Assembly (NCBI GenBank): GCA_035533075.1
Contig: DATLUO010000045.1
Coordinates: 161 to 64,160 of the forward strand
Direction: 5' to 3'
Length of the DNA stretch: 64,000 nucleotides
Source: Pirellulales bacterium
GTDB taxonomy: Bacteria; Planctomycetota; Planctomycetia; Pirellulales; JAICIG01
Shown: positions 13,997 through 43,693 of the stretch, piece after piece
How the letters are laid out: each line of letters begins with the position of its first letter
How positions within the stretch are numbered: position 1 is the first letter of the stretch
The notes under the pieces: model-generated
Seen by the model: the letters and a program-made list of their open reading frames with translations, nothing else
What the model was told of the DNA's origin: nothing
Databases searched by the model: none
Translations under genes and position numbers: made by a program

Positions 13997-14035
13997 GGTG
14001 GGCCGGCGCTCGCAAGCTCGCTGGTCCCACCCTAC
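13997..14035 (-). repeat. family-A REP element, copy A1
   Basis: The reverse complement reads GTAGGGTGGGACCAGCGAGCTTGCGAGCGCCGGCCCACC, a GTAG head plus an imperfect palindrome. It lies 2 nt downstream of the korB stop. Confidence 0.85.
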
Positions 14036-15121: not shown

Positions 15122-15215
15122 GTAGGGTGGGACCAGCGAGCTTGCGAGCGCCGGCCCACCAGCGGCGCTGATGCGTGGTGGGCCGGCGCTCGCAAGCTCG
15201 CTGGTCCCACCCTAC
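15122..15215. repeat. REPIN-like inverted doublet of family-A REPs (copies A2 and A3)
   Basis: GTAGGGTGGGACCAGCGAGCTTGCGAGCGCCGGCCCACC (15122-15160), a 16-nt spacer, then the inverted copy (15177-15215). It fills the korA-korB intergenic region. Confidence 0.85.
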
Positions 15216-18383: not shown

Positions 18384-21300
18384 ATGAGCATTTCCGTCGC
18401 CGATTTTTGGAAGCTGCTGGCCGAAAGCCGCCTTCTTACGCCCGACCAGGTGCGGCAGGTCGCCGATAACTTGGCACGCCGTAAACCGGGTGCCCTGAGT
18501 GATTTACGGCAAGTGGCCACGCTGCTCATCGAGGCCGGGCGGCTCTCGCGCTATCAGGCCAAGGTGTTGCTTTCCGGCAAGCCGGGGCCGTTCCTTTACG
18601 GCGATTACGTTGTCTATGATCGGGTCGAAAGTACCCGGCTGGCAGGGCTGTTTCGTGCCCGCCATCAGCCGACGCAGCATCCGGTTTGCCTTCAGTTCCT
18701 GGCCGGGAAATCGCTTGAAGATCCCCAGGCGCTGGCACGTCTGATGCCGCAAGTGGCGGTTGCCCGACAGGCCAGTCAGCAAGAGCCTCGGCTGAGCGGC
18801 TGCTATCAGTTCGTCGATCTCGGCACGTTTAAGTTCCTGGTGGTCGAAGACCTGCAAGGCGACTCGCTGGAAGAACGCCTTAAACAAACCAACGCCCGTT
18901 TCTCGGTGTCGATCGCGTGCCGGATGGTGCGGTTGGCCGCGTTGGGACTCGCCAGGCTCCATGCGCTGGGCCAGGCGCACGGCCACGTGCGGCCCGCAAA
19001 TGTCTGGCTCGAAGAGTCGGGTGCAACGAAGCTTTTGCAGTTTCCCTTGATCGGCGACCCGCTTTCGCCAAGACAGCCGCCCGCCAGCATCGAGGCGCAG
19101 CTCGACTACTTGGCGCCCGAATTGGCCAGCCCCGCCGCATTGGCCGACGCGCGCGGCGATGTCTACAGCCTCGGTTGCTTGCTCTTCACCTTGCTGGCCG
19201 GCAAACCGCCGCTGGCGGGCGGCGACCGCCAAAGCAAGCTGGCGCGGCAAAATCAAGAGGCGCCGCCGGCGATCACCAAGTTCAACCCGGAGACGCCCGC
19301 CGCGCTGACGCAAGTGCTGAACTATCTGTTGCAGAAAGATCCGGCCAGGCGTTATCCCGACGCGGCGGCGGTGGCCGAAGTGCTGCAAGCCTATTCCGGC
19401 GCCGATCCACAAACGGCGCCGCCAGCAACGCTGGCGGCCTACGAGGCCTGGTTGCAGCAACCGCGGCGCGGGCCAACGCCCGTCAATCCTCCGCAGGCTT
19501 CCGCACCGCAAGCTGCGCCGCCGCTCGCCGCGCGTCCCGTCATGGCTGGCGTGCCCGTGGCAGGCGCCAACGGCGGTGGAATGACCGGCAGAGTGCCGAT
19601 GGCACCCCTTGTTCAGCCGATGGCCGCGAGCGTGGCGATGGCCTCTGCGCCGGCAGCCGGCCACGTGCAGCCGCCGCCGGCAACCGCGTATCCGGCGGCG
19701 CCGCTCCGGGCCGTGCCGCCGCCGGTCGTCCATGCCGTGCCGGCGGTCGTCGCGGTGCCCAGCGGAGCCGCGGCAATCGCCCAGCGGCGCGCCAAAAAGG
19801 GCGGGCAAACGGCTGCCACGCTGGGTGTCATCGGCGCGGCCGTTGTCGTGCTGCTGGGAATCGTCTGGTTTCTGCAACCGGATGACGAAAAAGAGCAGCC
19901 GCAACCGACGAAGCACGAAGTCGCCGCGGTCCGGCCAACTGAGCCGGACGAGGAGGGCGCAGCCGATGATTCTGAAGAGGATCCGGCCTCGCAGGACATT
20001 CATCTTTCTGAAAAAGGGAGCGCCGCCACAGAACCGATTCATAGCATCGACCAAAAGCAGTTAATCTGGCAGTCGCCCACCCATGGTGCGCCGTTGAACC
20101 TGGCGTGGCTGCCGCCGGGCGTCCAAGTCGTCCTCGCGCTTCGTCCGGCCGAGCTGGCGGGGCAGGCCGAATGGGAAAAGCTGATCGACAAGAAGACGCT
20201 CGGCACGATCAGCCAGTGGATGACCGACGACCTGCCGAAGCTGACCGGCAAGACGCTCGATCAGATTGAGACGGTCGTGATCGGCCTGCTCGACGGCAGT
20301 CCCGGCCCGCCGCGCGTGGCCCTGGTCGCGCGTGCCAGTGAAGAATTCAATCTCGACGATTTGCGGACCGCCTGGGGCGACGCCAAGTCGGAAGAGATCG
20401 AAGGGCAGGTGATTTATGTTCGGGCGGGCCGGGCGTTTTATGTGCCCGCCAGCGGCGGCGACAAGCTGCTGGTGATCGCGCCGGCAGCCGAGCTGCGCGA
20501 AATGCTCAAAACCGGCGGCGAAGCTCCGCCGCTGAGGCGCGAAGTCGAAGTGCTGTTGGAATCGAGCGACGACCAGCGCCAGCTTACGCTGCTGGCGGCG
20601 CCGAATTTCCCTTTGACCGACGGCAAGGCGTTGTTCGTCGATGAGGGAGCGAAGCTGCTGGGACCGTTGCGGAACTTTCTGGAAATGGAGGACAGCGATC
20701 ACAAGCTGGAACTGACCAAGGCCCTGCTGTTGAGTTGCCATCTCGCAGACAGCTTGTTCCTGGAGTTGCGGCTGTACGATAACTTTGGCCGGCCGGCACA
20801 GAGCGCGGCCCGCGAGCTCGAGCGCCGCGTGGCCCAATTGCCCAGACAAGTGAGCGACTACCTCCAAGTTCTGCAGTTGTCGGCCTACAGCAAACCGGTG
20901 TTGTGGGATTACAAAGACCGGTTGGATGTGCTGCAACACTACACGCGGCTGGGCATCGAAGGGAAGCAGATTGTGATGCGGGCGTACTTGCCCGTCGTGG
21001 CGGCCCACAACCTGGCCTTGGGCGCGCACCTGGCGTTGTTGGAAAACGTCGGGAGTGGCGGACCGGTGGCCGCGGTGGCGTCGACCGCCCAGGCCGCCAA
21101 GCCGCAAACCGTGGCCGAAAAGCTCAAGAAAAAAACGACGCTTAGCTTTCCGCGCAACACGTTGGAGATGTCGATGAAGCTGCTCGGCGACGACATCGGC
21201 GTGGAGATCGTCATTCTGGGCAACGATTTGCGCGACGAGGGCATCACCAAGAACCAATCGTTCGGTCTGGAGGAGAAAGACCAGCCGGCCGACGAAATCC

Positions 21301-21458
21301 TGCGCAAAATCATGAAGCTGGCCAATCCAGACGGTAAACTGGTTTATGTCATCAAGCCCAAGGAAGGCGGTGGCGAGGACGTGCTGTATGTGACGACGCG
21401 GGCCGCCGTGAAGAAGCGCGGCGACAAGCTCCCGCCGGAACTGGAAACCGTGAAGTAG
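18384..21458 (+). CDS. Ser/Thr-kinase-like pseudokinase: single-pass membrane protein with a large periplasmic domain and an STN-like C-terminal module
   Basis: Start moved to MSISVADFWKLL (ATG 18384). The kinase fold retains APE (YLAPELA), DVYSLGCLLF and KDPARRY, but shows VCLQ for VAIK, HGHVRPAN for HRDLKPxN, QFP for DFG, and no Gly-rich loop. TM segment LGVIGAAVVVLLGIVWFL. Confidence 0.85.
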   Translation: MSISVADFWKLLAESRLLTPDQVRQVADNLARRKPGALSDLRQVATLLIEAGRLSRYQAKVLLSGKPGPFLYGDYVVYDRVESTRLAGLFRARHQPTQHPVCLQFLAGKSLEDPQALARLMPQVAVARQASQQEPRLSGCYQFVDLGTFKFLVVEDLQGDSLEERLKQTNARFSVSIACRMVRLAALGLARLHALGQAHGHVRPANVWLEESGATKLLQFPLIGDPLSPRQPPASIEAQLDYLAPELASPAALADARGDVYSLGCLLFTLLAGKPPLAGGDRQSKLARQNQEAPPAITKFNPETPAALTQVLNYLLQKDPARRYPDAAAVAEVLQAYSGADPQTAPPATLAAYEAWLQQPRRGPTPVNPPQASAPQAAPPLAARPVMAGVPVAGANGGGMTGRVPMAPLVQPMAASVAMASAPAAGHVQPPPATAYPAAPLRAVPPPVVHAVPAVVAVPSGAAAIAQRRAKKGGQTAATLGVIGAAVVVLLGIVWFLQPDDEKEQPQPTKHEVAAVRPTEPDEEGAADDSEEDPASQDIHLSEKGSAATEPIHSIDQKQLIWQSPTHGAPLNLAWLPPGVQVVLALRPAELAGQAEWEKLIDKKTLGTISQWMTDDLPKLTGKTLDQIETVVIGLLDGSPGPPRVALVARASEEFNLDDLRTAWGDAKSEEIEGQVIYVRAGRAFYVPASGGDKLLVIAPAAELREMLKTGGEAPPLRREVEVLLESSDDQRQLTLLAAPNFPLTDGKALFVDEGAKLLGPLRNFLEMEDSDHKLELTKALLLSCHLADSLFLELRLYDNFGRPAQSAARELERRVAQLPRQVSDYLQVLQLSAYSKPVLWDYKDRLDVLQHYTRLGIEGKQIVMRAYLPVVAAHNLALGAHLALLENVGSGGPVAAVASTAQAAKPQTVAEKLKKKTTLSFPRNTLEMSMKLLGDDIGVEIVILGNDLRDEGITKNQSFGLEEKDQPADEILRKIMKLANPDGKLVYVIKPKEGGGEDVLYVTTRAAVKKRGDKLPPELETVK

Positions 21459-21497
21459 GGTGGGCCGGCGCTCGCAAGCTCGCTGGTCCCACCCTAC
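21459..21497 (-). repeat. family-A REP element, copy A4
   Basis: GGTGGGCCGGCGCTCGCAAGCTCGCTGGTCCCACCCTAC starts 1 nt after the pseudokinase stop codon. Confidence 0.85.
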
Positions 21498-21510
21498 AAT
21501 TAGAATCGCC

Positions 21511-24500
21511 GTGGAACTTTTTTCGATCGTCTGCCCGACCTGTAGCGCACGGCTGAAGGTGCGCAATAGGGCCGCGATCGGACAGATTCTGAATTGCCCC
21601 AAGTGCAGCAGCATGGTGCAGGTTGCGGCACCCGCGGGCTGGCAACCGCCGTCCGCCGATGCCGTCGAAGGAGCCGCCGCGCCCTCGGATGCCCCCAGTA
21701 CGTCAGGCCGGCGGCGTTGGGAAAACCAGGTTCAGCCCGGCGAGAAATTGACCGAAGGCGCCGCGACGCCTTCCAGCAGCGGCGGCCTGAAGTTCGGCGA
21801 TTCGTCGGGCGGTCTGGCAGATAGCTCCGCAAGCTCCTCTTCGAGCATTTCGGCTTCCGCGCTGGCGGGTGCGGCAATGCAGGATTCGGAGGTCGGTCCG
21901 CTGGCCGCTCCACCGGTGGCTGGCGGTGGCGCGGCGGCCGCATGGGGCAAATGGGGCTTGTTGGCGGGCGTGCCGACACTCGTGGTGGCCCTGGCCGCCA
22001 CAGTCTGGTTCTTTCGTCGCTCGCCGGATGAGGTGCCACCTCCGCCGGAGGTGGCGGCCACCGAGCCGGCGCCCCCCATTGAGGCACCGCCGCCGCCCGC
22101 CACTCCGCCGCCCGATCGCGAGCCGGTGCCTGAGCCGGTCCGCCTGGCCCGTCGCTGGCTGCCCAGCAACGCGGCGGCCGTGGTCAGTTTGCGTCCCAAG
22201 CTGCTGCTGGCGGAACCGGCGGCACGCGTGGTGCTCGACCGCACGGCTGCGATCTGGCAAGCGGCGCTGGACAAGCTCGTGTCGTCGCTGGGGCTGGAAC
22301 CACAGTCGATCGACCGCGCCACCTGGTCGGCGGTCGATATTCGTGCGCTGCGCGGGAACGACTGGCTGACCCAAGGGGTCGTGGCCATCGAGCTCGACAA
22401 GCCGCTCGACGCCGCTTCGCCCGCGCTGCGCGACGGCGTGCCGCTCGATTGGACGCTGGCCAAGGCGCCGGCGCGAGAACTGAAATCGCGGGCCTGGCCG
22501 AATCCGTTCGCGGTGATCGACAAGCGGACGGTGGTGACCGGTCCCGGGCCGCTGTTGCGCGAGCTGGCCGCTCGCGAAGAGGACCGGCTGGCCAACGAGG
22601 CGCTCGAAGAGTTGCTGAACGCGGCCGATGCCAAGGCGGCGGCGCTGGCCCTGCTCGACTTGCGCGCCCTTCGCGACGCCGACGCCGTGCCGCACTGGAT
22701 GCCGGTGGTCGAGCTGTGGCACGCTGAAGCCGACGATTGGCAGTTGCTGCGCACGATGCCCCTGGCCTTCCGCCTGGCCATCAGCCTGGGAAAACAAGGC
22801 GACGTCGAGCTGGAACTGGCCTGCGACGGTGCCTCCGGCGCCGAAGAAGTGCATGCCGCGCTGGACCGCGTGCTCGAAGCCGTGGAAGGGACGATGGCCG
22901 GCGAGGCCGACTCGCTCAGCGACAAACTGCTGGCCGGTGAGATCAATGCGGCTCTGGCCGGCGACTTGAAACAGTTTCTGGCCGGCAGCCAATCGGCCTT
23001 GGCCGACCGCACTTCCGGCCTTCGCGATCAGGTGGTCTGGGCCCGCCTGGCGTGGCAGGGCGATCTCGCGAAGCTGGCGGCGGGCTTTCTGGCCGGCATT
23101 CCCCAACTGGAAGTCCGCCGGCTGGCGGCGGTGCGGCGGTTGGACGAAGAACATCACCAGCTCCTGCTGGCCGGACTGGCGGGCTACGTCAAGGCCGAGC
23201 GTGCCTGGCCCGCCGGCGCCGCCGGAGCGACGCTGCTCGCGCCCGAAACGCGACTGAGCTGGCAGGCCACGCTTCTGCCTTATTACGGACATCTCGATTG
23301 GCACGGCGAGTTGAACTTTGCCCGTGCCTGGAACGATCCGCTCAACCAGCGCGTGACGCGGCAGCCGCTGGACGTGATGACCAACCCGGCGTTGGGTCCG
23401 TCCAAGACAACGGCCGACTTTCCGGTCACGCATTACGTCGGCGTGGCCGGTCTGGGGGCCGACGCCGGGCAGCTCGAGGCCACCGACGCGCGAGCGGGCG
23501 TGTTTGGCTTTCGGTCGCGGCCGACGCCCGCCGAGATTCCCGATGGCGCATCGAACACGATTGCCTTGGCGGGCGTCAGCGGCAAGCTCGGCCCTTGGGC
23601 GGCCGGCGGCGCGGCCACCGTCCGCGGCTTGACGCAGCGTCCCTATATCAACGGCCCCGACGGCTTCGGCAGCGGACAGCCCGACGGCATGCTGGTGGGC
23701 ATGGCCGACGGCTCCGTGCGTTTTCTTTCCAAAGACATCGATCCCGCGGTTCTGGAGCGGCTGGCGACGATCCACGGCGGCGACCCGGATCCGTCGGTTG
23801 CTAAGGCGAGCACGCCTGACGGAGGTCTGCCTCCGCGTCAGCCCGCGCAAGCGAGGACACCTACGCCACGAGCCAAAACGGCTGAAAAACGTAGCGCGAA
23901 ACGAACGCGGCCGGTCCCTCAGGAACCCGACAAACGCATGGCGGCCCGGTTGAACGACACGATTCCGGGAATCGAGCTGAAGACGACGCTGACGGATCTG
24001 CTCAATTTGCTGTCGCAGCTTAGCACGGTGCCGATGACGCTCGACGCCGAGTCGCTGGCCCAGGCCGGCGTCGATCCCGCCGCGAAGGTTTCGCTGAAGT
24101 TATCGAACGCCACCATCGGCGAAATCCTCGACGCAGGGCTGCGGCCGTACGATCTGAAGTACGTGATGGTCGGCAAGCAGCTCATCGTGATGGATGCCCG
24201 GCGGCTGAAAGAGACCGTGGAGACCGTGCGGTTCAAAGTGGCCGACCTGGTGGCTTCGTCGAAACAGCACGAGAGCGACCTGGCGAAGCTGGTCGAGAGG
24301 TTTGTGGTGCCGACGGCCTGGCAGACGTCGGGCGGACCGGGCTCGATCGAGGCCGCCGAGGGAGAGCTGGTCGTGAAGCAGACGCCGAGCGTGTCGCAGC
24401 AAGTCGGCGGTTTTCTCGACAAGCTGCGGTTGGCGCGTCAACTGCCGGTCGCTCGCCGCGAGAGGCGGCCCGCGTCGCTGGCCACGCGCTGGTCGATGGC

Positions 24501-25005
24501 GCGCGAAAAGCTCTTAGGCAACGTGACGGTCAATTTTTCGGAGCCGGTGCCGCTGGCCGAGATCGCCGCACAACTGCAGAAAGCGGCCGGCATTGCGATC
24601 GTGTTCGACGGACTGGGCCTGGCCGCCGTGGAGCGCTCGCCCAAAGTTGAAGCCACGCTGTCGACCGACCGCGAGCCGCTGGCCGACGTGCTCGACCGCT
24701 TGTTGGAGCCGCTCGAACTCGGCTACCGGATCGTCGACGGGCAAGTGCTGCAGATCACCTCGGCCCGCGAGGTGTCGGACGATCTTGACGTCGAGTTCTA
24801 TCCGGCGGAGAGCTTCTTGCAAGCGGAGCCGGCCGACGAATTCGCTGCTCGCATTCGCAAAGAAGTCTCGCCGGCGACGTGGTTGGAAATGGGCGGCGCC
24901 GGCGCGCTGGAGGTCGATGCCGCTTCGTCTTATCTGATGGTGCTGGCCCCGCAGGGCGTCCAGATCGAGCTGGAGAACTGGCTGGCGGAGCAGACGAAGA
25001 AGTAG
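21511..25005 (+). CDS. zinc-ribbon single-pass membrane protein with an embedded DUF1559-like domain and two STN-like C-terminal modules
   Basis: Start placed at GTG 21511 (uncertain), because the upstream codons are REP-derived. CPTCSARLKV...CPKCSSMVQV is an MJ0042-type finger; TM segment LLAGVPTLVVALAATVWFF. RLSWQATLLPYY...THYVGVAG...IPDGASNTIAL...GQPDGMLVGMADGSVRFLSKDID is DUF1559-like. Confidence 0.8.
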   Translation: MELFSIVCPTCSARLKVRNRAAIGQILNCPKCSSMVQVAAPAGWQPPSADAVEGAAAPSDAPSTSGRRRWENQVQPGEKLTEGAATPSSSGGLKFGDSSGGLADSSASSSSSISASALAGAAMQDSEVGPLAAPPVAGGGAAAAWGKWGLLAGVPTLVVALAATVWFFRRSPDEVPPPPEVAATEPAPPIEAPPPPATPPPDREPVPEPVRLARRWLPSNAAAVVSLRPKLLLAEPAARVVLDRTAAIWQAALDKLVSSLGLEPQSIDRATWSAVDIRALRGNDWLTQGVVAIELDKPLDAASPALRDGVPLDWTLAKAPARELKSRAWPNPFAVIDKRTVVTGPGPLLRELAAREEDRLANEALEELLNAADAKAAALALLDLRALRDADAVPHWMPVVELWHAEADDWQLLRTMPLAFRLAISLGKQGDVELELACDGASGAEEVHAALDRVLEAVEGTMAGEADSLSDKLLAGEINAALAGDLKQFLAGSQSALADRTSGLRDQVVWARLAWQGDLAKLAAGFLAGIPQLEVRRLAAVRRLDEEHHQLLLAGLAGYVKAERAWPAGAAGATLLAPETRLSWQATLLPYYGHLDWHGELNFARAWNDPLNQRVTRQPLDVMTNPALGPSKTTADFPVTHYVGVAGLGADAGQLEATDARAGVFGFRSRPTPAEIPDGASNTIALAGVSGKLGPWAAGGAATVRGLTQRPYINGPDGFGSGQPDGMLVGMADGSVRFLSKDIDPAVLERLATIHGGDPDPSVAKASTPDGGLPPRQPAQARTPTPRAKTAEKRSAKRTRPVPQEPDKRMAARLNDTIPGIELKTTLTDLLNLLSQLSTVPMTLDAESLAQAGVDPAAKVSLKLSNATIGEILDAGLRPYDLKYVMVGKQLIVMDARRLKETVETVRFKVADLVASSKQHESDLAKLVERFVVPTAWQTSGGPGSIEAAEGELVVKQTPSVSQQVGGFLDKLRLARQLPVARRERRPASLATRWSMAREKLLGNVTVNFSEPVPLAEIAAQLQKAAGIAIVFDGLGLAAVERSPKVEATLSTDREPLADVLDRLLEPLELGYRIVDGQVLQITSAREVSDDLDVEFYPAESFLQAEPADEFAARIRKEVSPATWLEMGGAGALEVDAASSYLMVLAPQGVQIELENWLAEQTKK

Positions 25006-25014
25006 GGTGTGATC

Positions 25015-26223
25015 CTACTTTTGCCCGACCGTGACCGTGAACGGAAAGTTCTCGCTCGGCAGCTTGACGGCCGTGACGGTGTAGCTCCAGTCGCCGGCCT
25101 GAGCGTTGGGCACGTCGATCGTAATCGTGCTCGCCGATTGCTGTTCGCGCTTGCTGCCGTCGGGGGCGACCACCGTCAACCTGAGCTGCGCGCCGGCATT
25201 CTGAAAGCCGAGCACAAACTGCAAATGGCCGGGCTTGTCGGCATGGTAGACGCTCGTGGCCGATTGCTCGGCCGCCGACGCGCTGAACAGGTTCTTCTTG
25301 GCCGGCGAGAATCCGCCCTGCACCATCGTCCGCTGGACTTTCGTCTCGACTTCGGCGGTGACGGCGGAGAACACCAGGTATCGCAGGAGCTTAATCTCGG
25401 TCTCGCTGTTCTGTTTCTCGTTGTGAAACGACGTGAAGATCACCGTGCCGTCATGTTCGGGAAACTTGACCATCAGCGGAGCGGTCTGACTCGTGCCGGC
25501 GTCGGTGGTGTATTTGCCGCGGAGATAGACCGTGACGTCTTTGCCCTCGAAGGCCGCCGGATACCAGCCGGCCTGGTCGAACTCCAGCGGCATCTCGCCG
25601 CCGATCAGCTCGCGCAGCCCGGCATCGACCACTTCGGCGTTCAGCTTTTGCGTCTTGCCTTCTTGGGCCTGTTGGGGCTGGGCCACTTCGGGAAAAGCCT
25701 GCGCAATGAGCTTGTAGTGCAGGTCGGAGGCATACAGCGTGCCGCCGGCCAGCACGAAGTTGCGCAGGTTGTCGGACACCTGCTTGAGCACCTCTACGTT
25801 CGGTTCGAACACGCCGGCGCCCTTCCGCTGGCTGTCGCCGATCCTCTTGCCCAACCACGACTGCGGCACGCCCGAACAAGTGAAAAAGATGACGTCGAAG
25901 TCGCTCAGCTTTTCGCCTTTGCGCAAGTCGTCGAGCGGAAACGACGTGTACTTGTAACCTTGGCCCAGGCTGTCGAGCAACTTTCCCATGTCGTCGTAGC
26001 CTTCTCCCGGCAGCGGCGTGACGCCCAGCCGCAGACGCCGCACGGGTCCGGCGGGCGGTACGTCTTGCGCCTGCTCGACGGTTTGCAGTTTGACCTCGCC
26101 GCCGGGGGTCTCTGCCGGCGGCTTCTGATGGTCGATGGCAAACACGACGCCCAGCGCCAACACCAGGCCGGCCGCCAAGGCGGTATCGACGATCGTCTGC
26201 AAGAACAGCCGGCGGAGATTCAT
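25015..26223 (-). CDS. N-terminally anchored protein with a GATase1-like (ThuA/DUF4159-like) domain and a C-terminal beta-sandwich
   Basis: 402-aa ORF. TM segment IVDTALAAGLVLALGVVFAI. FDVIFFTCSG...NFVLAGGTLYASD...VIFTSFHNE is reminiscent of class-I amidotransferase-like folds. Pattern-level call only. Confidence 0.7.
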   Translation of the reverse strand: MNLRRLFLQTIVDTALAAGLVLALGVVFAIDHQKPPAETPGGEVKLQTVEQAQDVPPAGPVRRLRLGVTPLPGEGYDDMGKLLDSLGQGYKYTSFPLDDLRKGEKLSDFDVIFFTCSGVPQSWLGKRIGDSQRKGAGVFEPNVEVLKQVSDNLRNFVLAGGTLYASDLHYKLIAQAFPEVAQPQQAQEGKTQKLNAEVVDAGLRELIGGEMPLEFDQAGWYPAAFEGKDVTVYLRGKYTTDAGTSQTAPLMVKFPEHDGTVIFTSFHNEKQNSETEIKLLRYLVFSAVTAEVETKVQRTMVQGGFSPAKKNLFSASAAEQSATSVYHADKPGHLQFVLGFQNAGAQLRLTVVAPDGSKREQQSASTITIDVPNAQAGDWSYTVTAVKLPSENFPFTVTVGQK

Positions 26224-26464: not shown

Positions 26465-27529
26465 TTAGTTTTTCTTTCTGGGCGGTGGTGGCGGCGGAAT
26501 ACTGCCCGGCGATGCAGGCCGGTTGCCGGCGGCGGGTTTCGGCGCCGTCGCCGTGGTCGGCTGCGGTGCTTTGCTCTTCGCGGCCGCGGGCGCCGCTTTA
26601 TGCACCGGCGGCGGAGGCGGCGCGGCTTTGACCTGTCCTTGAAAAGCGGTGGTGAGCGGCTCTTGCCCTTGCTTGCGGTGCCGCTCGTTGAAACGCACGA
26701 AGTTGGTGCCAAACTTGATCACGTCGCCGTCTTTCAGCGGCGTCGCGCCGGTCAGCGGTTGGTTGTTGAGCCGCGTGCCGAGCTGCGAGTGGTTGTCTTC
26801 GACGACGAACGTGCCATTCGGCTGCCGTGCAATGCGGACGTGTTCCGATTCGAGGCCGGCGTTCATCGGACCCAAGAAGGGAAGCGGCAAGTGGTCGCCG
26901 CGACCCAAGAAGTTGACCGGTCGGCTGAGAATCACTTGCCGTCCTGGCCGGTAACCGTCGAGCACCGTGAGCCAGGCGTCTTTGAAGACGACCTGCACCA
27001 GTCCGATCAGCGCGCCGATGGCGATGCCCAGAATCACGAAGGCGATGGCCCGGCTCGACATGCCGGAGCCGTGGGCGACCCAGCGTTGCAGCGGATCGAA
27101 CAACAGTCCGCCCAGCAGCCCGCCCAGGGCGCCGCCGATCAGGCCGTTGCGCAACTTGCTGGCGGACCGCTCATAAAGTCCCTCGACGATGCCGATGCCG
27201 ATGCCGACGATCATCCAGCCCGGTGCCCGACCCAGAAAGGGATACAACAAGTCGCCGACAAAGCTGCCCACGGCGCCGCCGAAACCGCCGGCCACGACGC
27301 CCGGCAAGGCGCGCAGGGCGATTTGCGATAAGCGGCCATTGGCCATCCCGGCGACCACACTGAGGGCGAAGCCGATCGCGGCGCCGACCAATGCCCCGAT
27401 GGCCGCGACCTGCGCCGGTCCGCCGGCCTCGCCCGACTGAAAGAACAGGATTTCTGCCACCAGCCAGCCGACAAAGGCCCCCCATCCGCCAGCCAAGGCA
27501 CTGTAATAGACAACGCGGACAAACGACAT
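26465..27529 (-). CDS. FHA-domain membrane protein (Gly-zipper TM region, FHA, Pro-rich tail)
   Basis: 354-aa ORF. The N-terminal half is Gly/Ala-rich with multiple TM segments. FLGRGDHLPLP...SEHVRIARQPNGTFVVEDNHSQLGTRLNNQPL...LKDGDVIKFG is a canonical FHA pattern. The tail is PPPPPVHKAAP...PPPPPPRKKN. Confidence 0.85.
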   Translation of the reverse strand: MSFVRVVYYSALAGGWGAFVGWLVAEILFFQSGEAGGPAQVAAIGALVGAAIGFALSVVAGMANGRLSQIALRALPGVVAGGFGGAVGSFVGDLLYPFLGRAPGWMIVGIGIGIVEGLYERSASKLRNGLIGGALGGLLGGLLFDPLQRWVAHGSGMSSRAIAFVILGIAIGALIGLVQVVFKDAWLTVLDGYRPGRQVILSRPVNFLGRGDHLPLPFLGPMNAGLESEHVRIARQPNGTFVVEDNHSQLGTRLNNQPLTGATPLKDGDVIKFGTNFVRFNERHRKQGQEPLTTAFQGQVKAAPPPPPVHKAAPAAAKSKAPQPTTATAPKPAAGNRPASPGSIPPPPPPRKKN

Positions 27530-27791: not shown

Positions 27792-29498
27792 TTACGACCG
27801 CTCGTGCCGCGCCAGCCAGAGTCCGCCGAGCAAAACGACCGTCGCCATCGCGAAGTACGAGGCGGCCATGACCATCGGTGTTTGAACGGCGGGCGACGGC
27901 AAAGAGTCCAGCGGCAGGCTCCAGGGCAATGCCAGGGGACTGCCCGGCAGCGGCGAATGGATGACGCCGAACAAGCTGCACGCCGCCGCCGACAACAGGA
28001 ACGCGGCGGCCGACCAATAGCGGCGGTCGATGAGCATCGCCAGCGTCGATGCCCAAAACAGGCTGGTGATCACAAAGCCGTTCGAGAGCGTGCGCAGCGT
28101 TTGCAGCGCCTCGGCCAGCGAAGCGGTGCCCGGCGATTGGGCCAGTGAGACAAGCGAGTGCCCCGTCGCACCCAGGATTTGGTCCGCAAAAATCATCACC
28201 AGCGAGGCCAAAGCCGGCAGGCAGGCAAAGGCCAAGGCCGGATAGTGCCGCTGCGGCGTGGCGCGAAAGCTTTGCGATGCGATCTCCAGGCCGACAAAAA
28301 CCAGAATCGGGAAGACAACCGCCTTGGGAATGAAAACGTAGAGATACCCGAAGTAGCCGAGCAGCCCGGCACTGCCCACGACGAGGGCGGTGGCCAGCGT
28401 GTAGCCGGCACGGGCACCCATCGCTTTGTAGGCCGGGTGCCCGATGTAAGGCGTCGTCTGGATCACACCGCCACAAAACGCGGCCGCCAAGGTGGCGACC
28501 GCCTCGACGGCGATCACGCCCGACGTGTCGTACTCGTCGCCCGCCGCGGCCGCGCTTTCGGTGCAGTCGATTCCGCCCACCACGGTCGCCAACGCAAACG
28601 GGAGAACCACCGGCAGATAGGCAAGCGAGTCGTTCCAGGCCGACATCCAGTGACCGCGAAAAGCCGACAGCCACTCGGTCGGCCAGAGAGCGTCGGCCGG
28701 GCGGATGGCGAGCGGACCGGCCGGGGTCAGGCCCGCCGCACGCATGGCATAGAAGACGACTCCGCCGACCAGTAAAGCCAGCAAGGCGCCGGGGAGATGG
28801 GCGGGCAAGGCCAAACGGGCCACCAGCGTCATCAAAATGATGCCCAAGGAGACGAAGCCGGCCACGGGATGCTGCATCACTTCAATGAAGGGAAGAAAGC
28901 TGATCAGGACCAAGGCGATGGCGGCCAACGATCCCAACAGCCCGGCACGAGGCACCACGCGGCGTATCCAGCCGGAGACGGGGGCGGCTGCCAATTTGAA
29001 CAGTCCGCTGGCCAGCAACGTGCAAATCCCGATGTGCCAGGCGTTTTGGGCGGCGGCCAGTTCATCCACACCACGCTCGCGGGCAGTTTGGAAGGCCGGG
29101 CCGAGCACAAAGAACACCATGCCCAGCGTGCTGGGGGTGTCGATTCCTAAAGGCATGGCGGTCAAGGTCTTATTGCCGCTGAGGCGGGCCAGACGGACCG
29201 CCATCCAAGTGAAGATGAGGTCGCCCACAAGCACGCCGACCGCCGTGCCGGGCAACATCGTGCGGAGGGCAAAGGTTGCAGGAAATTTGTAAGTTGCGGA
29301 AAGCAGTCCCACGCAGAGCAAGAGGTTGGCGACGTTATCCAACATCAAGCCGAAAAAGGCGTTAACGTCGCCAGACACGAACGGACGGTAGCGGTTCAAC
29401 AGCGCGTTTCCTATCGAGGCACGCCCTTTGCAAAAGGGGTGGCGTGAGTCTAGGACGCCCAACTGCCGCCTGTCAAATTGGCACCTCAAAGCGAACAT
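27792..29498 (-). CDS. polytopic permease, NCS2/AzgA-like (xanthine/uracil/vitamin C permease superfamily)
   Basis: Start moved to MFALRC (ATG 29498), because the upstream 25 codons are the tandem repeat. At least 12 hydrophobic segments. DVNAFFGLMLDNVANLLL and TAMPLGIDTPS resemble this transporter family. Family call is tentative. Confidence 0.65.
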   Translation of the reverse strand: MFALRCQFDRRQLGVLDSRHPFCKGRASIGNALLNRYRPFVSGDVNAFFGLMLDNVANLLLCVGLLSATYKFPATFALRTMLPGTAVGVLVGDLIFTWMAVRLARLSGNKTLTAMPLGIDTPSTLGMVFFVLGPAFQTARERGVDELAAAQNAWHIGICTLLASGLFKLAAAPVSGWIRRVVPRAGLLGSLAAIALVLISFLPFIEVMQHPVAGFVSLGIILMTLVARLALPAHLPGALLALLVGGVVFYAMRAAGLTPAGPLAIRPADALWPTEWLSAFRGHWMSAWNDSLAYLPVVLPFALATVVGGIDCTESAAAAGDEYDTSGVIAVEAVATLAAAFCGGVIQTTPYIGHPAYKAMGARAGYTLATALVVGSAGLLGYFGYLYVFIPKAVVFPILVFVGLEIASQSFRATPQRHYPALAFACLPALASLVMIFADQILGATGHSLVSLAQSPGTASLAEALQTLRTLSNGFVITSLFWASTLAMLIDRRYWSAAAFLLSAAACSLFGVIHSPLPGSPLALPWSLPLDSLPSPAVQTPMVMAASYFAMATVVLLGGLWLARHERS

Positions 29499-29500
29499 CA

Positions 29501-29560
29501 AGGAGGATGGCCTTCCCAGGCCGTCAAAAAAGGAGGATGGCCTTCCCAGGCCGTCCAAAA
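29501..29560. repeat. perfect-but-one tandem duplication of a 30-nt unit
   Basis: AGGAGGATGGCCTTCCCAGGCCGTC(A/C)AAAA occurs twice, immediately upstream of the permease ATG. Each unit contains a GGCCT-TCCC-AGGCC mini-hairpin. Confidence 0.8.
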
Positions 29561-29685
29561 CCATGTGGGGCATGTCAGCCCTTGCCCCCGTGGCGGCAAG
29601 ATGGGGAACGGTTTCGGTAACTAATCAAGGAAGCGGCTCTCTGGATCTCCGGGCAAAAGTCGGCAATAATTCTTGCCGGCCCGGT

Positions 29686-29718: not shown

Positions 29719-30381
29719 ATGAGCTACACCATCGAACGGACACGAACCAATCAGCGAGCCAACTATGTGGTAAGCCGCACCTGGTCGGAAATGACCGACG
29801 AGGAACTTCTGTCGGCTTATCGCGAGTCGGCAGCCAAGCTGGCGTTTGCCGAGTTGGTGCAACGTTATGAGCGGGAGTTGTACAACTACTTGCGGCGCTA
29901 TTTGGGCGACCCCGTGATGGCCGAAGACGCCTTCCAGGGCACGTTTTTGCAACTGCACCTGAAATGCGACCAGTTCGAGCCGGACAAAAAAGTGCGGCCT
30001 TGGCTCTACATGATCGCCACCAACCAGGCGATCGACGCCCAACGCCGCAACAAGCGGCACCGGCTGGTGAGCCTCGACCGGCGCTGCTCGGCTGACGATG
30101 AAGAAATAGGGACGCTGGTCGATTTGCTGGTCAGCAAAGAGGTCGGCCCGGCGGACCAAATGGAGAGCGATGAGCGGCGGGCGTGGGTGCGCAAGGCGGT
30201 CAGCGAGTTGCCGCCGACGCTGCTCAGCGCCGTGACGTTGATCTACTATCAGGGGCTGAAGTACCGTGAAGCGGCCGAGATACTGGATGTTCCGGTCGGC
30301 ACGGTCAAGAGCCGCTTGCACGCGGCCATTTTGAAGTTGCACGAGGCGTGGAACCACGCACAACCGTCCGGAGAGAACTAG
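29719..30381 (+). CDS. ECF-type RNA polymerase sigma-70 family factor
   Basis: 220-aa ORF. Region 2 reads FAELVQRYERELYNYLRRYLGD...AEDAFQGTFLQLH...PWLYMIATNQAIDAQRR. Region 4 reads YYQGLKYREAAEILDVPVGTVKSRLHAA. Confidence 0.9.
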   Translation: MSYTIERTRTNQRANYVVSRTWSEMTDEELLSAYRESAAKLAFAELVQRYERELYNYLRRYLGDPVMAEDAFQGTFLQLHLKCDQFEPDKKVRPWLYMIATNQAIDAQRRNKRHRLVSLDRRCSADDEEIGTLVDLLVSKEVGPADQMESDERRAWVRKAVSELPPTLLSAVTLIYYQGLKYREAAEILDVPVGTVKSRLHAAILKLHEAWNHAQPSGEN

Positions 30382-30384
30382 CCC

Positions 30385-31341
30385 ATGCGTGACCAACTGC
30401 TCGGCTACCTGCTGGGAGCACTTGAGCCGGCGGAGCAAGATGAGGTCGAGGCCCGGCTTTTTACCGATGTCGAACTGCAGCACGATCTGGCCGAGCTGCG
30501 ACGGAAACTGGTGTTGCTTGACGACGGCGACGAATTTGAGCCGCCCGGCGGACTGGCCGCGCGGACTTGCAACTATGTCGCGGCCCGAGCGCCGGCGGCC
30601 AAGAACACCGCCCTGCCGGCCCCGGTGGGCGGCTGGCGCGTGCAAGACATGATCGTGGGCGGCGGCATTTTTCTGGCCGCCTGCCTGCTGATGTTCCCGG
30701 CCATCGCCAATAGCCTTTCGCACGCCCGCATCACCGCCTGCCAAAACAACCTGCGGGCCATCGGCGTGGCGATGGGGCAATACAGCGATTTCAACGGCGG
30801 CTTCTTTCCGTTGGTGCCCGAACAAGGCCCGTTGGCCGTGGCCGGAAGCTATGGTCCGACACTGGCGGAACTGAAGCTCATCGAAGGGCCGAACGTGCTT
30901 GTCTGTCCCGCCGCTCGGCAGGCCGATGACGTCCGTCCCTTCACCGTGCCGACGATGGTTCAGGTTATGAACGCACCCGCCGCCGACTTGCCGCGGCTAC
31001 AGGCCCAAATGGGCGGCAGCTACGGCTATACGTTCGGTTACATCGAGCATGGCCGCTACCGCGGGCACCGCAATCACGGACGCTCGAACTTCGCTTTGAT
31101 GGCCGACGCACCGGGCGAAGCGTCCGGCGGCCGAAGCGCCAATCACGGCGGAGCGGGCCAGAACGTGCTCTTCGAAGACTTGCACGTGGTGTTTCTCGAT
31201 CATTGCCAGCTTTCGGGCTGCGGTGACCATATTTACATCAACGGCCACGGCTACGTCGGCGCGGGCATTGGCCCCGACGACGCGGTGATCGGCCGCAGCT
31301 CGGCCCGGCCGGTCACGTTCCAACTTGTTCCCGCCGAGTAG
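30385..31341 (+). CDS. anti-sigma-like N-terminus fused through one TM to a DUF1559-like periplasmic domain
   Basis: 318-aa ORF starting 4 nt after the sigma stop. LLGYLLGALEPAEQDEVEARL is an anti-sigma-type N-terminus; TM segment IVGGGIFLAACLLMFPAI. ITACQNNLRAIGVAMGQY and NHGGAGQNVLFEDLHVVFL show DUF1559 H-X9-(E/D)(D/G) spacing. Confidence 0.75.
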   Translation: MRDQLLGYLLGALEPAEQDEVEARLFTDVELQHDLAELRRKLVLLDDGDEFEPPGGLAARTCNYVAARAPAAKNTALPAPVGGWRVQDMIVGGGIFLAACLLMFPAIANSLSHARITACQNNLRAIGVAMGQYSDFNGGFFPLVPEQGPLAVAGSYGPTLAELKLIEGPNVLVCPAARQADDVRPFTVPTMVQVMNAPAADLPRLQAQMGGSYGYTFGYIEHGRYRGHRNHGRSNFALMADAPGEASGGRSANHGGAGQNVLFEDLHVVFLDHCQLSGCGDHIYINGHGYVGAGIGPDDAVIGRSSARPVTFQLVPAE

Positions 31342-31347
31342 ATCGTT

Positions 31348-32694
31348 ATGCCCAACGATCTACCCACGCTGCTCGCGGCCGCGGCCGACATTCGTTCCGG
31401 CCGCTTGAGGCCCGTGGACCTCGTGGAACGATGCCTTGCGCAGATCGACGCGCACGAGACTCGCATTCGCGCCTGGGTGATGGTCGATGCCGAGGGTGCC
31501 CGCGATGCGGCACGCCGGGCCGGCGACGAAATCGCGCGCGGCGAGTACCGCGGTCGACTGCACGGCATCCCGATCGGCATCAAGGACATCGTCGACGTGG
31601 CCGGCTGGCCGACGCTGGCCGGTTCTTCTTTGCATGCCGGCCACCGTGCCCAGCGCGACGCCACGGTGGTGGCCCGGCTGCGAAATGCCGGCGCGGTTCT
31701 TCTCGGCAAGACGGTGACCACCGAATTCGCCAGCTTCGATCCGCCGGTGACGCGCAATCCGTGGAACGTCGCGCGCACGCCCGGCGGATCGAGCAGTGGT
31801 TCGGCCGCTGCGGTGGCGCTGGGCATGTGTCTAGGAGCGATCGGTTCGCAGACGGGCGGCTCGATTACCCGGCCGGCCAGCTATTGCGGCGTGGCGGGCT
31901 GCAAGCCGACGTTCGGCCGAGTCAGCAGCCAGGGAGTCGTGCCGCTCAGCCGGCACATGGACCACGTCGGTCCCATCGCGCGTTCGGTCGGCGACTTGGC
32001 GGCGATCTTGGAAGTGATCGCCGGCTACGACCCGCTCGATGCCACCACTGTCGATGTGCCCGTCGATCATTATGTGGACCGCTGCCGGGATGCGGCCGCT
32101 CCGCGTCTGGGACTGGTGGACGACGCCTACTTTTCCGACGGGCTGCCGCGCTCGGTTGCGGCCGCGCTGGCGGAATCGACTCGACGCTTCGAGCAGTCGG
32201 GTGCGATGACCGGCATGGTGAAGCTGCCCGGCAGTTTTGCCCAAGTGACCGCCTTGCACCGGCGGATGATGGGCGTGGAAGCGGCCGAATACCATCAGCC
32301 GATGTTCGAGAAGCACCGCGATCGATACGGGCCAAACATTGCTTCGCTGATCGAGGAAGGACCGCGGGTTACGGCAATCGCCTACGCCGCGGCGCTGGTT
32401 CATCGCCGGCAATTACAGCGCGACTTGCTGACGTCGTTTGCTGACTACGATGCGCTCGTCACGCCCGCCACGACCTCGACCGCGCCCGGCATCGAGACGA
32501 CCGGCGACCCCAAGTTCAATTCTCCCTGGAGCTACGTCGGTTATCCGACGGTGTCCTTTCCCTGCGGCCTGGCCGACGATGGGCTGCCGCTGGCGGTGCA
32601 GATCGTCGGCCGTCCCTTCGAAGAGGCCCGACTCCTCTCCGCGGCCGCCTGGTGCGAGCGTACGCTGAACTTCGAACAGCGGCCCGCCGTGTAG
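31348..32694 (+). CDS. amidase-signature family amidase (GatA-like)
   Basis: 448-aa ORF. GIPIGIKDIVDVAGWPT, the GGSSSGSAAAVA signature and QTGGSITRPASYCGV. Confidence 0.9.
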   Translation: MPNDLPTLLAAAADIRSGRLRPVDLVERCLAQIDAHETRIRAWVMVDAEGARDAARRAGDEIARGEYRGRLHGIPIGIKDIVDVAGWPTLAGSSLHAGHRAQRDATVVARLRNAGAVLLGKTVTTEFASFDPPVTRNPWNVARTPGGSSSGSAAAVALGMCLGAIGSQTGGSITRPASYCGVAGCKPTFGRVSSQGVVPLSRHMDHVGPIARSVGDLAAILEVIAGYDPLDATTVDVPVDHYVDRCRDAAAPRLGLVDDAYFSDGLPRSVAAALAESTRRFEQSGAMTGMVKLPGSFAQVTALHRRMMGVEAAEYHQPMFEKHRDRYGPNIASLIEEGPRVTAIAYAAALVHRRQLQRDLLTSFADYDALVTPATTSTAPGIETTGDPKFNSPWSYVGYPTVSFPCGLADDGLPLAVQIVGRPFEEARLLSAAAWCERTLNFEQRPAV

Positions 32695-36205: not shown

Positions 36206-36265
36206 CACCGAGTATCCACGCACCTTTTGTGATCGGTTCCGGTCATCGGTCGTTCAATAGGGAAC

Positions 36266-36789: not shown

Positions 36790-36828
36790 GGTGGGCCGGC
36801 GCTCGCAAGCTCGCTGGTCCCACCCTAG
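36790..36828 (-). repeat. family-A REP element, copy A5 (CTAG head variant)
   Basis: GGTGGGCCGGCGCTCGCAAGCTCGCTGGTCCCACCCTAG, in the divergent region upstream of the MFP gene. Confidence 0.85.
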
Positions 36829-37030
36829 GGCTGCGGCTTCGAACGCGGACTTTCCTTGCGATTTGGAAATCTCCGGCGGAAAATCGCGAATCCGCGGCAA
36901 CTGCCCATTCTTGCGAGTCGCTCCGTCCGATGAGCATGATGGTTTGCGGGTGTTCGCCGCGGTGTGGTACGCTCGAAGTGTTGGAAAGCTCCGCCCTCGG
37001 CCCGCCAGAGAACGCACAGAAAACGGAAAC

Positions 37031-38413
37031 ATGTCCCGCGTCATGCGAGTTCGCCACAAGCTCATTACCGTCGTTTCGATTGCTCTGGTGGTGCTCGCGG
37101 CGGCCATCACCTATCCCAGGTTGCGGGCCCTGCTGAAGCCGCCTGAACCGATCATCCAACCTCACGGGAGCGTCTTGTTCAAGCTGAAGAAAGGCGACCC
37201 GAATGTGCTGATTGTTTCCGAAGACGCGATGAAAGCGATTGATTTGAAGACCGAGCCCGTCCAAGCCGCTCCCGAACCCGATCCGCTGGAGCTGCCCGGC
37301 TATCTTAGCGTCGATCCAAACCGGCTCGTGCCGATCCATTCGCGGTTTCCCGGCGAAGTGGTGCAACTCGGCGCCACGAAAGCCCGCGATCTCGACGGAA
37401 AGCTGACCATGCGGCTGCTGCGCTACGGCGACCCGATCCAGAAGGGCGACCTGCTGGCGGTCGTATGGAGCACCGACATCGGCCAGAAAAAAAGCGAACT
37501 GGTCGATGCCCTATCGAAACTGGGCCTGGACGAGATGGTGCTCAACCGCCGGCTGCGGGCGGGCCCTGGCACGGTGCCCGAGCTTAAGGTGGAAGAAGCC
37601 CGACGCAACGTCGAGGCCGACAAGATCCTGGTCAACGCGGCGGAGCGCACCTTGCGCTCGTGGCGGCTCACCGAGCAGGAAATCGACGAGGTCAAGGAGG
37701 AAGCCAAGCAGCTTCGCAGCAACGAACAGGAAACCGCCGCCGCCAAGACGTGGTCGGAGCTGCAAATCTGGGCCCCGATGGACGGCATCGTGATCGAAAA
37801 AAACGTCAATGTGGGAGAGGTCGTCGATACCACCGACAACTTGTTCAAGGTGGCCGACCTGACTACGCTGCAAGTGCTGGCCTACGTGTATGAAGAAGAC
37901 TTGCCGGTGCTCGAGCAGCTCAAGCCCGAAGAACGTCACTGGAAAATCGACCTGAAGAGCGATCCCAACGACCCTCAGCGGCCGGGCATGTTCGAGCTGA
38001 TCGGCGACGTCATCGACTCGGTCACGCGCACCGGCCCCGTCATCGGATGGTTGAACAACGCCGACCGCAAGCTGCGGGTGAACCAGTTCGTCAGGGCGAC
38101 GATCGAGTTGCCGGCCGACCCGACGATGGTGTCCGTGCCGACGTCGGCCCTGGTCGAAGAAGGCGGAAAGGAGGCTGTGTTCGTCGAGACCGACCCGCTC
38201 CATCACGAGATCACCCGGCGCGTGGTGGCGGTCACGCGGCGCGGCAAGGACCGCATTTTCATTCGCGCCGAACCGAACGAGCAAGAACGCCAGCAAGGCA
38301 CCGGGCCTTTGAAGGTCGGCGAGCGGGTGGTCATGCGCGGAGGCCTGGAACTCGATCAGGTGCTGAGCAACCTGCAGTCGATCGGCGGCGCCGGCACCGG
38401 CGAGGGAGAATGA
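37031..38413 (+). CDS. RND efflux periplasmic adaptor (MFP/HlyD family)
   Basis: Start moved to MSRVMRVRHKLITVVSIALVVLAAA (ATG 37031). Coiled-coil hairpin region (ELVDALSKL...VEEARRNVEADKILVNAAERTLRSW), then a lipoyl/beta-barrel part (IWAPMDGIVIEKNVNVGEVV). Confidence 0.85.
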   Translation: MSRVMRVRHKLITVVSIALVVLAAAITYPRLRALLKPPEPIIQPHGSVLFKLKKGDPNVLIVSEDAMKAIDLKTEPVQAAPEPDPLELPGYLSVDPNRLVPIHSRFPGEVVQLGATKARDLDGKLTMRLLRYGDPIQKGDLLAVVWSTDIGQKKSELVDALSKLGLDEMVLNRRLRAGPGTVPELKVEEARRNVEADKILVNAAERTLRSWRLTEQEIDEVKEEAKQLRSNEQETAAAKTWSELQIWAPMDGIVIEKNVNVGEVVDTTDNLFKVADLTTLQVLAYVYEEDLPVLEQLKPEERHWKIDLKSDPNDPQRPGMFELIGDVIDSVTRTGPVIGWLNNADRKLRVNQFVRATIELPADPTMVSVPTSALVEEGGKEAVFVETDPLHHEITRRVVAVTRRGKDRIFIRAEPNEQERQQGTGPLKVGERVVMRGGLELDQVLSNLQSIGGAGTGEGE

Positions 38414-43508: not shown

Positions 43509-43580
43509 GGCGCTGTCGCCAAGAGGCTAAGGCAGCGGATTGCAAATCCGCCATCGTGGGTTCGACTCCCACCAGCGCCT
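43509..43580 (+). tRNA. tRNA-Cys (GCA)
   Basis: Cloverleaf folded by hand. Acceptor GGCGCTG/CAGCGCC; anticodon stem GCGGA/TCCGC with loop TTGCAAA; T-arm GTGGG-TTCGACT-CCCAC; discriminator U73. CCA is not encoded. Confidence 0.95.
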
Positions 43581-43693
43581 CTTACGCCGTAAGAGCGGGA
43601 AACTCTGAAATATGGACTGTCGGAGAGCCTCCTGGTATCCTCAGCCATTGAGGGCAAGAGATAAGGCTGGCATCCCCCGTTGAGCACGCTCGC

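Follow-up and report, generated by a model that had tools for sequence, protein, structure and literature searches.

What do two large, adjacent genes for single-pass membrane proteins, one with a kinase fold devoid of catalytic residues and the other with a zinc ribbon, contribute to the cell envelope of a planctomycete? We addressed this question computationally for a 64,000-nucleotide (nt) stretch of DNA from a Pirellulales bacterium (assembly GCA_035533075.1, contig DATLUO010000045.1, positions 161 to 64,160 of the forward strand), hereafter the window, in which the two genes, here denoted A and B, lie next to each other on the same strand. A preliminary description, made from the sequence alone, had portrayed their products as a heteromeric transmembrane sensor or scaffold that couples an envelope signal to a non-catalytic kinase fold. 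In our analysis, the two proteins carry homologous periplasmic domains followed by secretin-type C-terminal modules, and their genes remain together at most of the related loci, including many in which the kinase fold has been reduced or is absent. The reading that we tentatively favour is that A and B are two subunits of an envelope module specific to Pirellulales, serving as a scaffold or adaptor that spans the periplasm.

Domain architecture of A and B

Just after its transmembrane (TM) helix, each protein carries a domain of ~350 amino acids (aa), which we call domain X in A and X' in B. A direct BLASTP comparison of A with B was not significant (best E 0.56). Profile-profile comparison with hhalign, using a profile of 100 A-family domains on the A side, aligned A aa 569-870 with B aa 210-516 at a probability (Prob) of 97.8% and E 6.5e-13 over ~289 collinear columns when B was represented by a 4-sequence profile, and at Prob 98.9% and E 3.9e-17 over 288 columns with a 90-sequence profile; these E-values refer to single comparisons, not to database searches. 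The controls gave a Prob of 0.3% for the reversed B profile and 1.5% for the A domain against the B C-terminus. A hidden Markov model (HMM) of the A domain recovered 37 of the 90 B-family domains at E<1e-3 (Z=1e6) and no reversed sequences. By these comparisons, domain X of A and X' of B are homologous. The preliminary description had drawn attention to short collinear motifs in the two periplasmic regions (WLP...LRP; LTLLAAPNF in A and ALALLDLRAL in B); these fall on aligned hhalign columns, and the profile-level similarity that it expected between the two regions is clearly present.

The AlphaFold model of A aa 552-1024, built from 63 sequences, has a mean confidence (pLDDT) of 92. No Pfam family covers domain X in any of the 63 members, Foldseek gave no match to it at E<=1e-3 in PDB or BFVD, and PDB sequence and profile searches with it were empty. 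Low-scoring Foldseek likenesses (low TM-score) to ABBA prenyltransferases, RseB and hub or baseplate proteins of phages and type VI secretion systems were treated as uninformative.

Only the last ~100 residues of this model have relatives in the PDB: Foldseek matched them to the N0 domain of PilQ (4ar0) and to an N0-like chain of the Dot/Icm outer-membrane complex (7mud_Ad), with prob 1.0. The Pfam family STN (PF07660) does not match A directly and matches one of the 63 A-family members at 1e-4; conservation within the A family peaks at the loop EGITKNQSF of this N0 module. In B, STN matches two stretches (32.6 bits, cut-off 28.4), which align with each other at an hhalign Prob of 97%, and the C-terminal ~115 aa of A align with the first and second of these at Prob 92% and 80%, respectively. 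The model of B aa 800-1164 (74 sequences; pLDDT 95, predicted TM-score 0.89) consists of two repeats, each an N0-like module followed by an N1-like beta-alpha-beta-beta-alpha module. Its best PDB matches are the N0-N1 segments of PilQ, XcpQ, EscC, GspD, MxiD and InvG (E down to 7e-6, prob 1.0), and the PupB signaling domain and the C-domain of an anti-sigma factor are also among the structural matches. HMMs of the two ~75-aa modules of B ('mid' and 'end') cross-match each other's regions, confirming the duplication of the N0+N1 unit. At E<=1, B yielded no match to the secretin pore domain, and its C-terminus directly follows the second N1-like module. Thus, where the preliminary description had assigned one STN-like module to A and two to B, an STN-like fold was recovered at both C-termini, in A without a match at the curated STN sequence threshold, and the modules are better called secretin-type, N0 in A and a twofold N0-N1 in B.

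On the cytoplasmic side, A aa 90-325 match Pfam Pkinase (PF00069) at 69 bits (cut-off 31.7), and the fold is homologous to PknB and PknA (E 1e-18). In the alignment with PknB, the beta3 lysine K40 corresponds to Q103 of A, the HRD aspartate D138 to H201 (the motif reading HGH) and the DFG aspartate D156 to Q217 (reading QFP), and direct reading of the corresponding stretch, YDRVESTRLAGLFRA, shows no glycine-rich GxGxxG loop. Among 42 aligned kinase domains from A-family genes of other genomes, the DFG aspartate is missing in all 42 and the beta3 lysine in nearly all, while the motifs HGxxRPxN, KLLxFP and DYxAPE are common to the set. Because the DFG aspartate is missing throughout the family and the lysine in nearly all members, and the family nevertheless keeps motifs of its own, the kinase fold of A is an old, conserved pseudokinase under selection rather than a recent wreck, in agreement with its initial description as non-catalytic. 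The absence of catalytic residues combined with the retention of HGxxRPxN, KLLxFP and APE points to a structural role for this fold. The pseudokinase is preceded by a conserved helical segment (aa 1-70, 18384-18593; FWKLL..S.LL...Q........L...G.LS.YQA..LLSGK), which has no matching Pfam family and persists in homologues without most of the kinase (P0027).

A Pro/Ala-rich linker joins the kinase fold to the TM helix of A, which has RRAKK on its N-terminal side and an acidic linker on its C-terminal side (flank charges +4 and -3); the positive N-flank and acidic C-flank fit an N-in/C-out topology. The hydropathy scan also showed a marginal, Pro-rich hydrophobic stretch at aa 448-466, which is unlikely to be a TM helix. 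In B, a linker of ~100 aa separates the zinc ribbon from the TM helix, and the linker that follows the helix is 44% proline. The common topology first ascribed to the two proteins therefore stands, with one strong TM segment in each, flanked by Pro/Ala- or Pro-rich linkers.

The N-terminal ribbon of B (aa 6-40) matched only generic zinc-ribbon models, all below the Pfam and NCBIfam cut-offs, and its four cysteines are kept in partners as distant as that of Posidoniimonas. It had been labeled an MJ0042-type CxxC...CxxC finger; the four conserved cysteines are present, and the label found no model support, the MJ0042 model TIGR02098 giving no match to B at E<=1. The internal DUF1559 domain of B is matched by PF07596 at 57 bits (cut-off 23.3), and aa 724-740 score 18.5 bits against the H-X9-DG model TIGR04294 (cut-off 19). 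Pfam and the hydropathy scan revealed no N_methyl match, prepilin leader or hydrophobic N-terminal helix in this domain, and the only hydrophobic segment of B is its TM helix, far N-terminal of DUF1559. A Pro/Arg-rich linker lies between DUF1559 and the 365 C-terminal residues.

Both open reading frames (ORFs) are present with the lengths originally reported, are intact and show the codon-position GC pattern of real genes. The start of A agrees with that of the homologue P0027, and the GTG start of B with the 'VELF.I.C.TC' N-termini of its aligned homologues. The pair is isolated, the upstream genes (for a CBS protein and a 2-oxoacid:ferredoxin oxidoreductase) being divergent and the downstream genes (for a 402-aa protein, an FHA protein and a 593-aa protein) convergent.

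Table. Coordinates of the A-B gene pair, the domains of its products and the associated palindromic repeat (positions in the window; aa, amino acids)
Feature	Position	Strand	Description	Basis
Gene A	18384-21458	+	ATG start, 1024 aa; single-pass membrane pseudokinase, cytoplasmic N-terminus, periplasmic C-terminus	ORF and translation
A aa ~72-348	18597-19427	+	Hanks-type kinase fold without catalytic residues	Pfam Pkinase, PknB alignment
A aa 475-500	19806-19883	+	Only strong TM helix	Hydropathy scan, flank charges
A aa 562-886	20067-21041	+	Domain X, alpha/beta periplasmic domain	>200 homologues, AlphaFold model
A aa 910-1012	21111-21419	+	Secretin N0/STN-like module, near-invariant loop EGITKNQSF	hhalign, Foldseek
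Palindrome in A-B spacer	21459-21493	.	REP-like, 35 nt, perfect	Fold dG -32.4 kcal/mol; dispersed copies
Palindrome copies in window	13997-14031; 15126-15160 (-); 15177-15211; 21459-21493; 36790-36824			
Gene B	21511-25005	+	GTG start, 1164 aa; Zn-ribbon single-pass membrane protein	ORF and translation
B aa 1-40	21511-21630	+	CxxC...CxxC zinc ribbon, cytoplasmic	Weak Pfam/NCBIfam matches, conserved Cys
B aa 149-168	21955-22014	+	Single TM helix	Hydropathy scan
B aa 210-516	22138-23058	+	Domain X', divergent paralogue of A domain X	hhalign
B aa ~530-745	23098-23745	+	Internal DUF1559 domain, putative H-X9-DG motif	PF07596
B aa 808-975	23935-24438	+	First N0 (STN) + N1-like unit	Pfam STN, model, Foldseek
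B aa 993-1163	24487-25002	+	Second N0 + N1-like unit, protein end	hhalign, model, Foldseek

Conservation and modular variation of the pair

The periplasmic region of A has more than 200 homologues, all from Pirellulales or other Planctomycetota where the source is named, most of them 450-780 aa long and without a kinase. Relatives of A occur in 263 species-representative genomes, the cultured Lacipirellula limnantheis among them, and Posidoniimonas corsicana also has one. For B, word-indexed searches underestimate the distribution, with 3 matches for X' and 5 for the C-terminus, such that the long form looked very narrow; an exhaustive HMMER scan placed X' in 143 clusters at the 50% identity level, mostly with the same long architecture.

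We examined synteny in 84 fetched loci with HMMs of the modules built for this purpose; 76 of these loci include downstream DNA. In 66 of the 76, a gene encoding a zinc ribbon and N0 begins 0-281 nt past the stop codon of the A-like gene on the same strand, and this adjacency is kept down to ~35% identity. The conserved adjacency of orthologues on which the preliminary description had staked its proposal of a functional pair was thus found. In the window, the spacer between A and B is 52 nt; in close relatives it is much shorter, the downstream frame opening 3 nt past the A stop codon.

None of 14 flanking genes of the window (those for FHA, ECF sigma factor, CBS and 2-oxoacid:ferredoxin oxidoreductase proteins included) lies near any related locus. 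De novo clustering of the neighborhoods returned only glutamate dehydrogenase, histidinol dehydrogenase and 3-deoxy-D-arabino-heptulosonate 7-phosphate (DAHP) synthase as frequent neighbors, which we read as inherited gene order because these are housekeeping genes. The Posidoniimonas corsicana locus (L003) has a DAHP synthase gene on the opposite strand, just past B.

The architecture of both proteins varies around a fixed center. The pseudokinase is complete in 45 of 83 A-like genes, reduced to a remnant in 11 and absent from 27. P0027 (L001, 8001-10217) retains the N-terminal helices and the kinase N-lobe and has lost the C-lobe, and A-like genes at six further loci (L020, L037, L044, L052, L059 and L075) show a similar pattern. 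The complete, N-lobe remnant and kinase-less forms represent stepwise loss of the pseudokinase inside one orthologous family. The number of N0 copies also varies, with three in tandem in one A-family member (L041, 5369-9259) and two in another (P0018). Among the 49 fully sampled B partners, 12 have X' and 11 have DUF1559, and these long forms occur almost only beside a kinase-bearing A. The short B partners consist of the zinc ribbon, the TM helix and a long linker, followed by N0 alone or by N0-N1-N0-N1. The invariant core of the pair is TM-X-N0 in A and Zn-ribbon-TM-N0 in B; the kinase fold, X' and DUF1559 are optional, and the zinc ribbon of B is the invariant cytoplasmic element.

Candidate roles of the pair in the envelope

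Several known systems resemble parts of the pair. The last 365 aa of B form two N0+N1 units as found in secretins (GspD/XcpQ/PilQ/EscC/InvG), and the last ~100 aa of A match the N0 domain of PilQ. Unlike secretins, A and B have no signal peptide and bear a cytoplasmic zinc ribbon or pseudokinase, and in B the N0-N1 unit is duplicated, whereas secretins continue N0-N1-N2-N3; because they lack a pore domain and are anchored in the inner membrane, A and B are not secretins. A has the same layout as PknB-like Hanks-type receptor kinases, with a homologous kinase fold, one TM helix and an extracytoplasmic region, but it differs from them in the loss of the beta3 lysine, the HRD and DFG aspartates and the glycine-rich loop, in an extracytoplasmic part made of X and N0 rather than PASTA or another known sensor, and in a kinase fold that is dispensable in a third of the family. 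The DUF1559 family is pilin-like, with a pilin-like head, and its typical members are ~300 aa long and start with a prepilin-type leader and a hydrophobic helix. The DUF1559/H-X9-DG proteins of Planctomycetes (PF07596, TIGR04294) share with B aa ~530-745 the PF07596 match and a putative H...DG motif, but in B the domain is internal, ~530 aa into the protein and between X' and N0-N1, without such a helix. In a study of Planctopirus, DUF1559 proteins are reported to constitute the largest paralogue group of that genome, with 68 members of which two are essential (PMC10632474).

For the zinc ribbon of B only, a functional analogy may be drawn with GltJ of the Myxococcus Agl-Glt gliding machinery, whose other domains differ. 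The Agl-Glt complex is described as spanning the cell envelope (PMC11761067) and the cytosolic zinc-finger domain of GltJ as a regulatory docking switch (PMC11135422); by analogy only, GltJ offers a precedent for regulation of an envelope-machine membrane protein through a zinc finger in the cytoplasm. FecA-FecR-type signaling likewise combines an STN fold with an inner-membrane protein that crosses the membrane once and has a regulatory domain in the cytoplasm; in A and B, however, the STN modules reside on inner-membrane proteins rather than on an outer-membrane transporter, no ECF sigma factor is a conserved neighbor, and Pfam and NCBIfam showed no FecR or anti-sigma domain in either protein. 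Neither the pair nor domain X was found described in Pfam, NCBIfam, PDB or the searched literature, in keeping with the initial impression that no such pairing had been described. The pair is a new combination, largely of known module types, to which one new domain is added.

We favour, as plausible without yet being probable, a scaffold or adaptor function, because what is conserved in the pair is its periplasmic core, the C-terminal modules correspond to those with which secretins dock and build rings, and conservation in the A family is strongest in a loop of the N0 module, as a fixed binding surface would show. Where the kinase has been lost (27 of 83), the periplasmic core is retained, which places the conserved function in the periplasm. 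The close co-directional spacing of the genes at 66 of 76 loci without any other neighbor in common, the paralogy of X and X', and the near-restriction of long-form B to kinase-bearing A speak for this function as well. Under this scenario, long Pro-rich or acidic linkers would carry A and B, each anchored in the inner membrane by one helix, out into the periplasm, where they might assemble with each other via paralogous segments: X with X' in the long form and, more generally, N0 with N0/N1. Docking and oligomerization are the mode of action of N0/N1 domains in secretins, and those of A and B could likewise dock onto, or oligomerize under, an outer-membrane or cell-wall partner. The constant zinc ribbon and the frequent pseudokinase, neither of them catalytic, would offer docking platforms with which cytoplasmic partners are recruited or positioned. 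B of the window lineage has also gained a copy of domain X and the internal DUF1559, which may provide a link to the DUF1559 pseudopilin-like proteins of planctomycetes.

Several observations weigh against this scheme. Neither the window nor the flanks of related loci contain secretin, type II secretion system (T2SS) or pilus genes, and the fold of domain X offers no functional clue. STN/N0 domains also act in signaling, as in TonB-dependent transducers, and the PupB signaling domain appears among the structural matches of the B C-terminus. Furthermore, an adjacent B is absent from 10 of the 76 loci. The exceptions comprise a close relative (L005), a locus (L077) where B is located upstream of A, on the opposite strand, and a distant kinase-bearing clade, which includes a Planctomicrobium piriforme metagenome-assembled genome; at the two loci of this clade that we checked, a DAHP synthase gene follows A directly (L064, 8455-9471, with a 4-nt overlap; L078, 8538-9605) and there is no B-like gene.

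The alternative that comes closest to the initial proposal is a trans-envelope signaling receptor, in which X and/or the STN modules would sense a periplasmic or outer-membrane cue that the pseudokinase and zinc ribbon read out allosterically, for example through activation of a Ser/Thr kinase partner or engagement of an FHA protein. In TonB-dependent transducers, STN domains work with FecR-type regulators, and the receptor-kinase-like layout of A, the conservation of the pseudokinase motifs over a deep family, the PupB and anti-sigma factor matches, and the nearby genes for an FHA-domain protein (26465-27529) and an ECF sigma factor (29719-30381) all speak for a role of this kind. Nevertheless, we consider it doubtful: roughly one in three A-family proteins lacks the kinase and has just a short tail in the cytoplasm, no related locus has the FHA or ECF gene beside it, no FecR or anti-sigma domain was matched in A or B, and structurally the best matches are stacks of secretin N0-N1 domains, not the signaling domains of transducers. 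In particular, coupling of an envelope signal to the kinase fold fails as the core function of the family, given the 27 of 83 A-like genes without a kinase and the 11 with a remnant only.

It is less likely still that the pair is an accessory of a T2SS or type IV pilus (T4P)-like machine, with B as a GspC/PilP-type connector that would link an inner-membrane platform and DUF1559 pseudopilins to an outer-membrane secretin, and A as its partner and regulator. The presence in B of a domain from a pilin-like family and of secretin-type N0-N1 units speaks for this arrangement, as does the size of the DUF1559 group reported from Planctopirus; but DUF1559 occurs in only 11 of the 49 fully sampled B loci, no T2SS or T4P gene is linked at any locus examined, and the DUF1559 domain of B does not have the hydrophobic N-terminal helix that pilins need to enter a filament. 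We regard as similarly unlikely that the pair forms the inner-membrane and periplasmic core of a planctomycete-specific trans-envelope apparatus, such as the base of the crateriform-structure and fiber system or another envelope or budding structure of Pirellulales, in which N0/N1 ring modules and X would replace or gate an outer-membrane pore while the pseudokinase and zinc ribbon would position the apparatus from the cytoplasm. Finally, the insignificant BLASTP comparison and the repetitive element between the genes could be taken to mean that A and B are unrelated neighbors or decaying genes whose common motifs arose by compositional chance. The profile-profile similarity (P ~4e-17) with clean reversed and off-target controls, the adjacency at 66 of 76 loci, which reaches down to an identity of ~35%, the intact ORFs with gene-like codon-position GC and the confident models (pLDDT 92 and 95) argue otherwise, and chance adjacency is, for practical purposes, excluded.

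Planctomycete envelopes include structures and some very large families of paralogues, such as DUF1559, for which few molecular roles are established. Against this background, A-B represents a testable two-gene module that is conserved across at least 263 species-level genomes, those of the cultured Lacipirellula limnantheis and Posidoniimonas corsicana among them. Domain X is a new periplasmic domain with a confident model, no Pfam family and no solved relative, and the N0/N1 building blocks of secretins appear here in a new setting, on inner-membrane-anchored proteins without a pore domain. The A family is a deep family of bacterial receptor pseudokinases in which loss of the fold can be traced from the full form through the N-lobe remnant to none. 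Should A and B indeed assemble into a complex, it would represent a new way of bridging the envelope and provide a handle on planctomycete cell biology.

The intergenic repeat and other features of the window

The spacer between A and B contains a 35-nt palindrome, GGTGGGCCGGCGCTCGCAAGCTCGCTGGTCCCACC, of which the window holds five identical copies against none expected by chance. Given these five copies and the lack of a T-run, we interpret it as a dispersed element resembling repetitive extragenic palindromes (REPs); the spacer had indeed been called a REP, a characterization that applies in kind but not in the length of 39 nt assigned to it. A role of the hairpin as an intrinsic terminator was considered and ruled out, since no T-run follows the stem and the repeat is dispersed. 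Scans for Rfam families, tRNAs, promoters and terminators revealed nothing relevant to the A-B pair. Two copies of the palindrome, in opposite orientation and 16 nt apart, lie at the junction of two oxidoreductase subunit genes, and one is located at the ORF start of an HlyD-family gene.

Downstream of the pair, the convergent FHA-domain gene (26465-27529, minus strand) lies ~1.5 kb from B, between two genes with no Pfam match (25015-26223 and 27792-29573, both on the minus strand). FHA domains bind phosphothreonine, and the position of such a gene beside a pseudokinase is suggestive; this gene and its two flanking genes lie near none of the related A-B loci. A 318-aa ORF begins 4 nt past the ECF sigma factor gene, with an amidase gene next in line (29719-32694 in all, plus strand); the 318-aa product, without a Pfam match, is possibly an anti-sigma factor. 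Farther downstream, the window carries a tRNA-Cys gene (43509-43581) and two efflux sets of the resistance-nodulation-division type, the first comprising an outer-membrane factor (33944-36223, minus strand), an HlyD-family adaptor (36791-38413) and an AcrB-family pump (38418-41951), and the other a second AcrB-family pump (43949-47161, minus strand).

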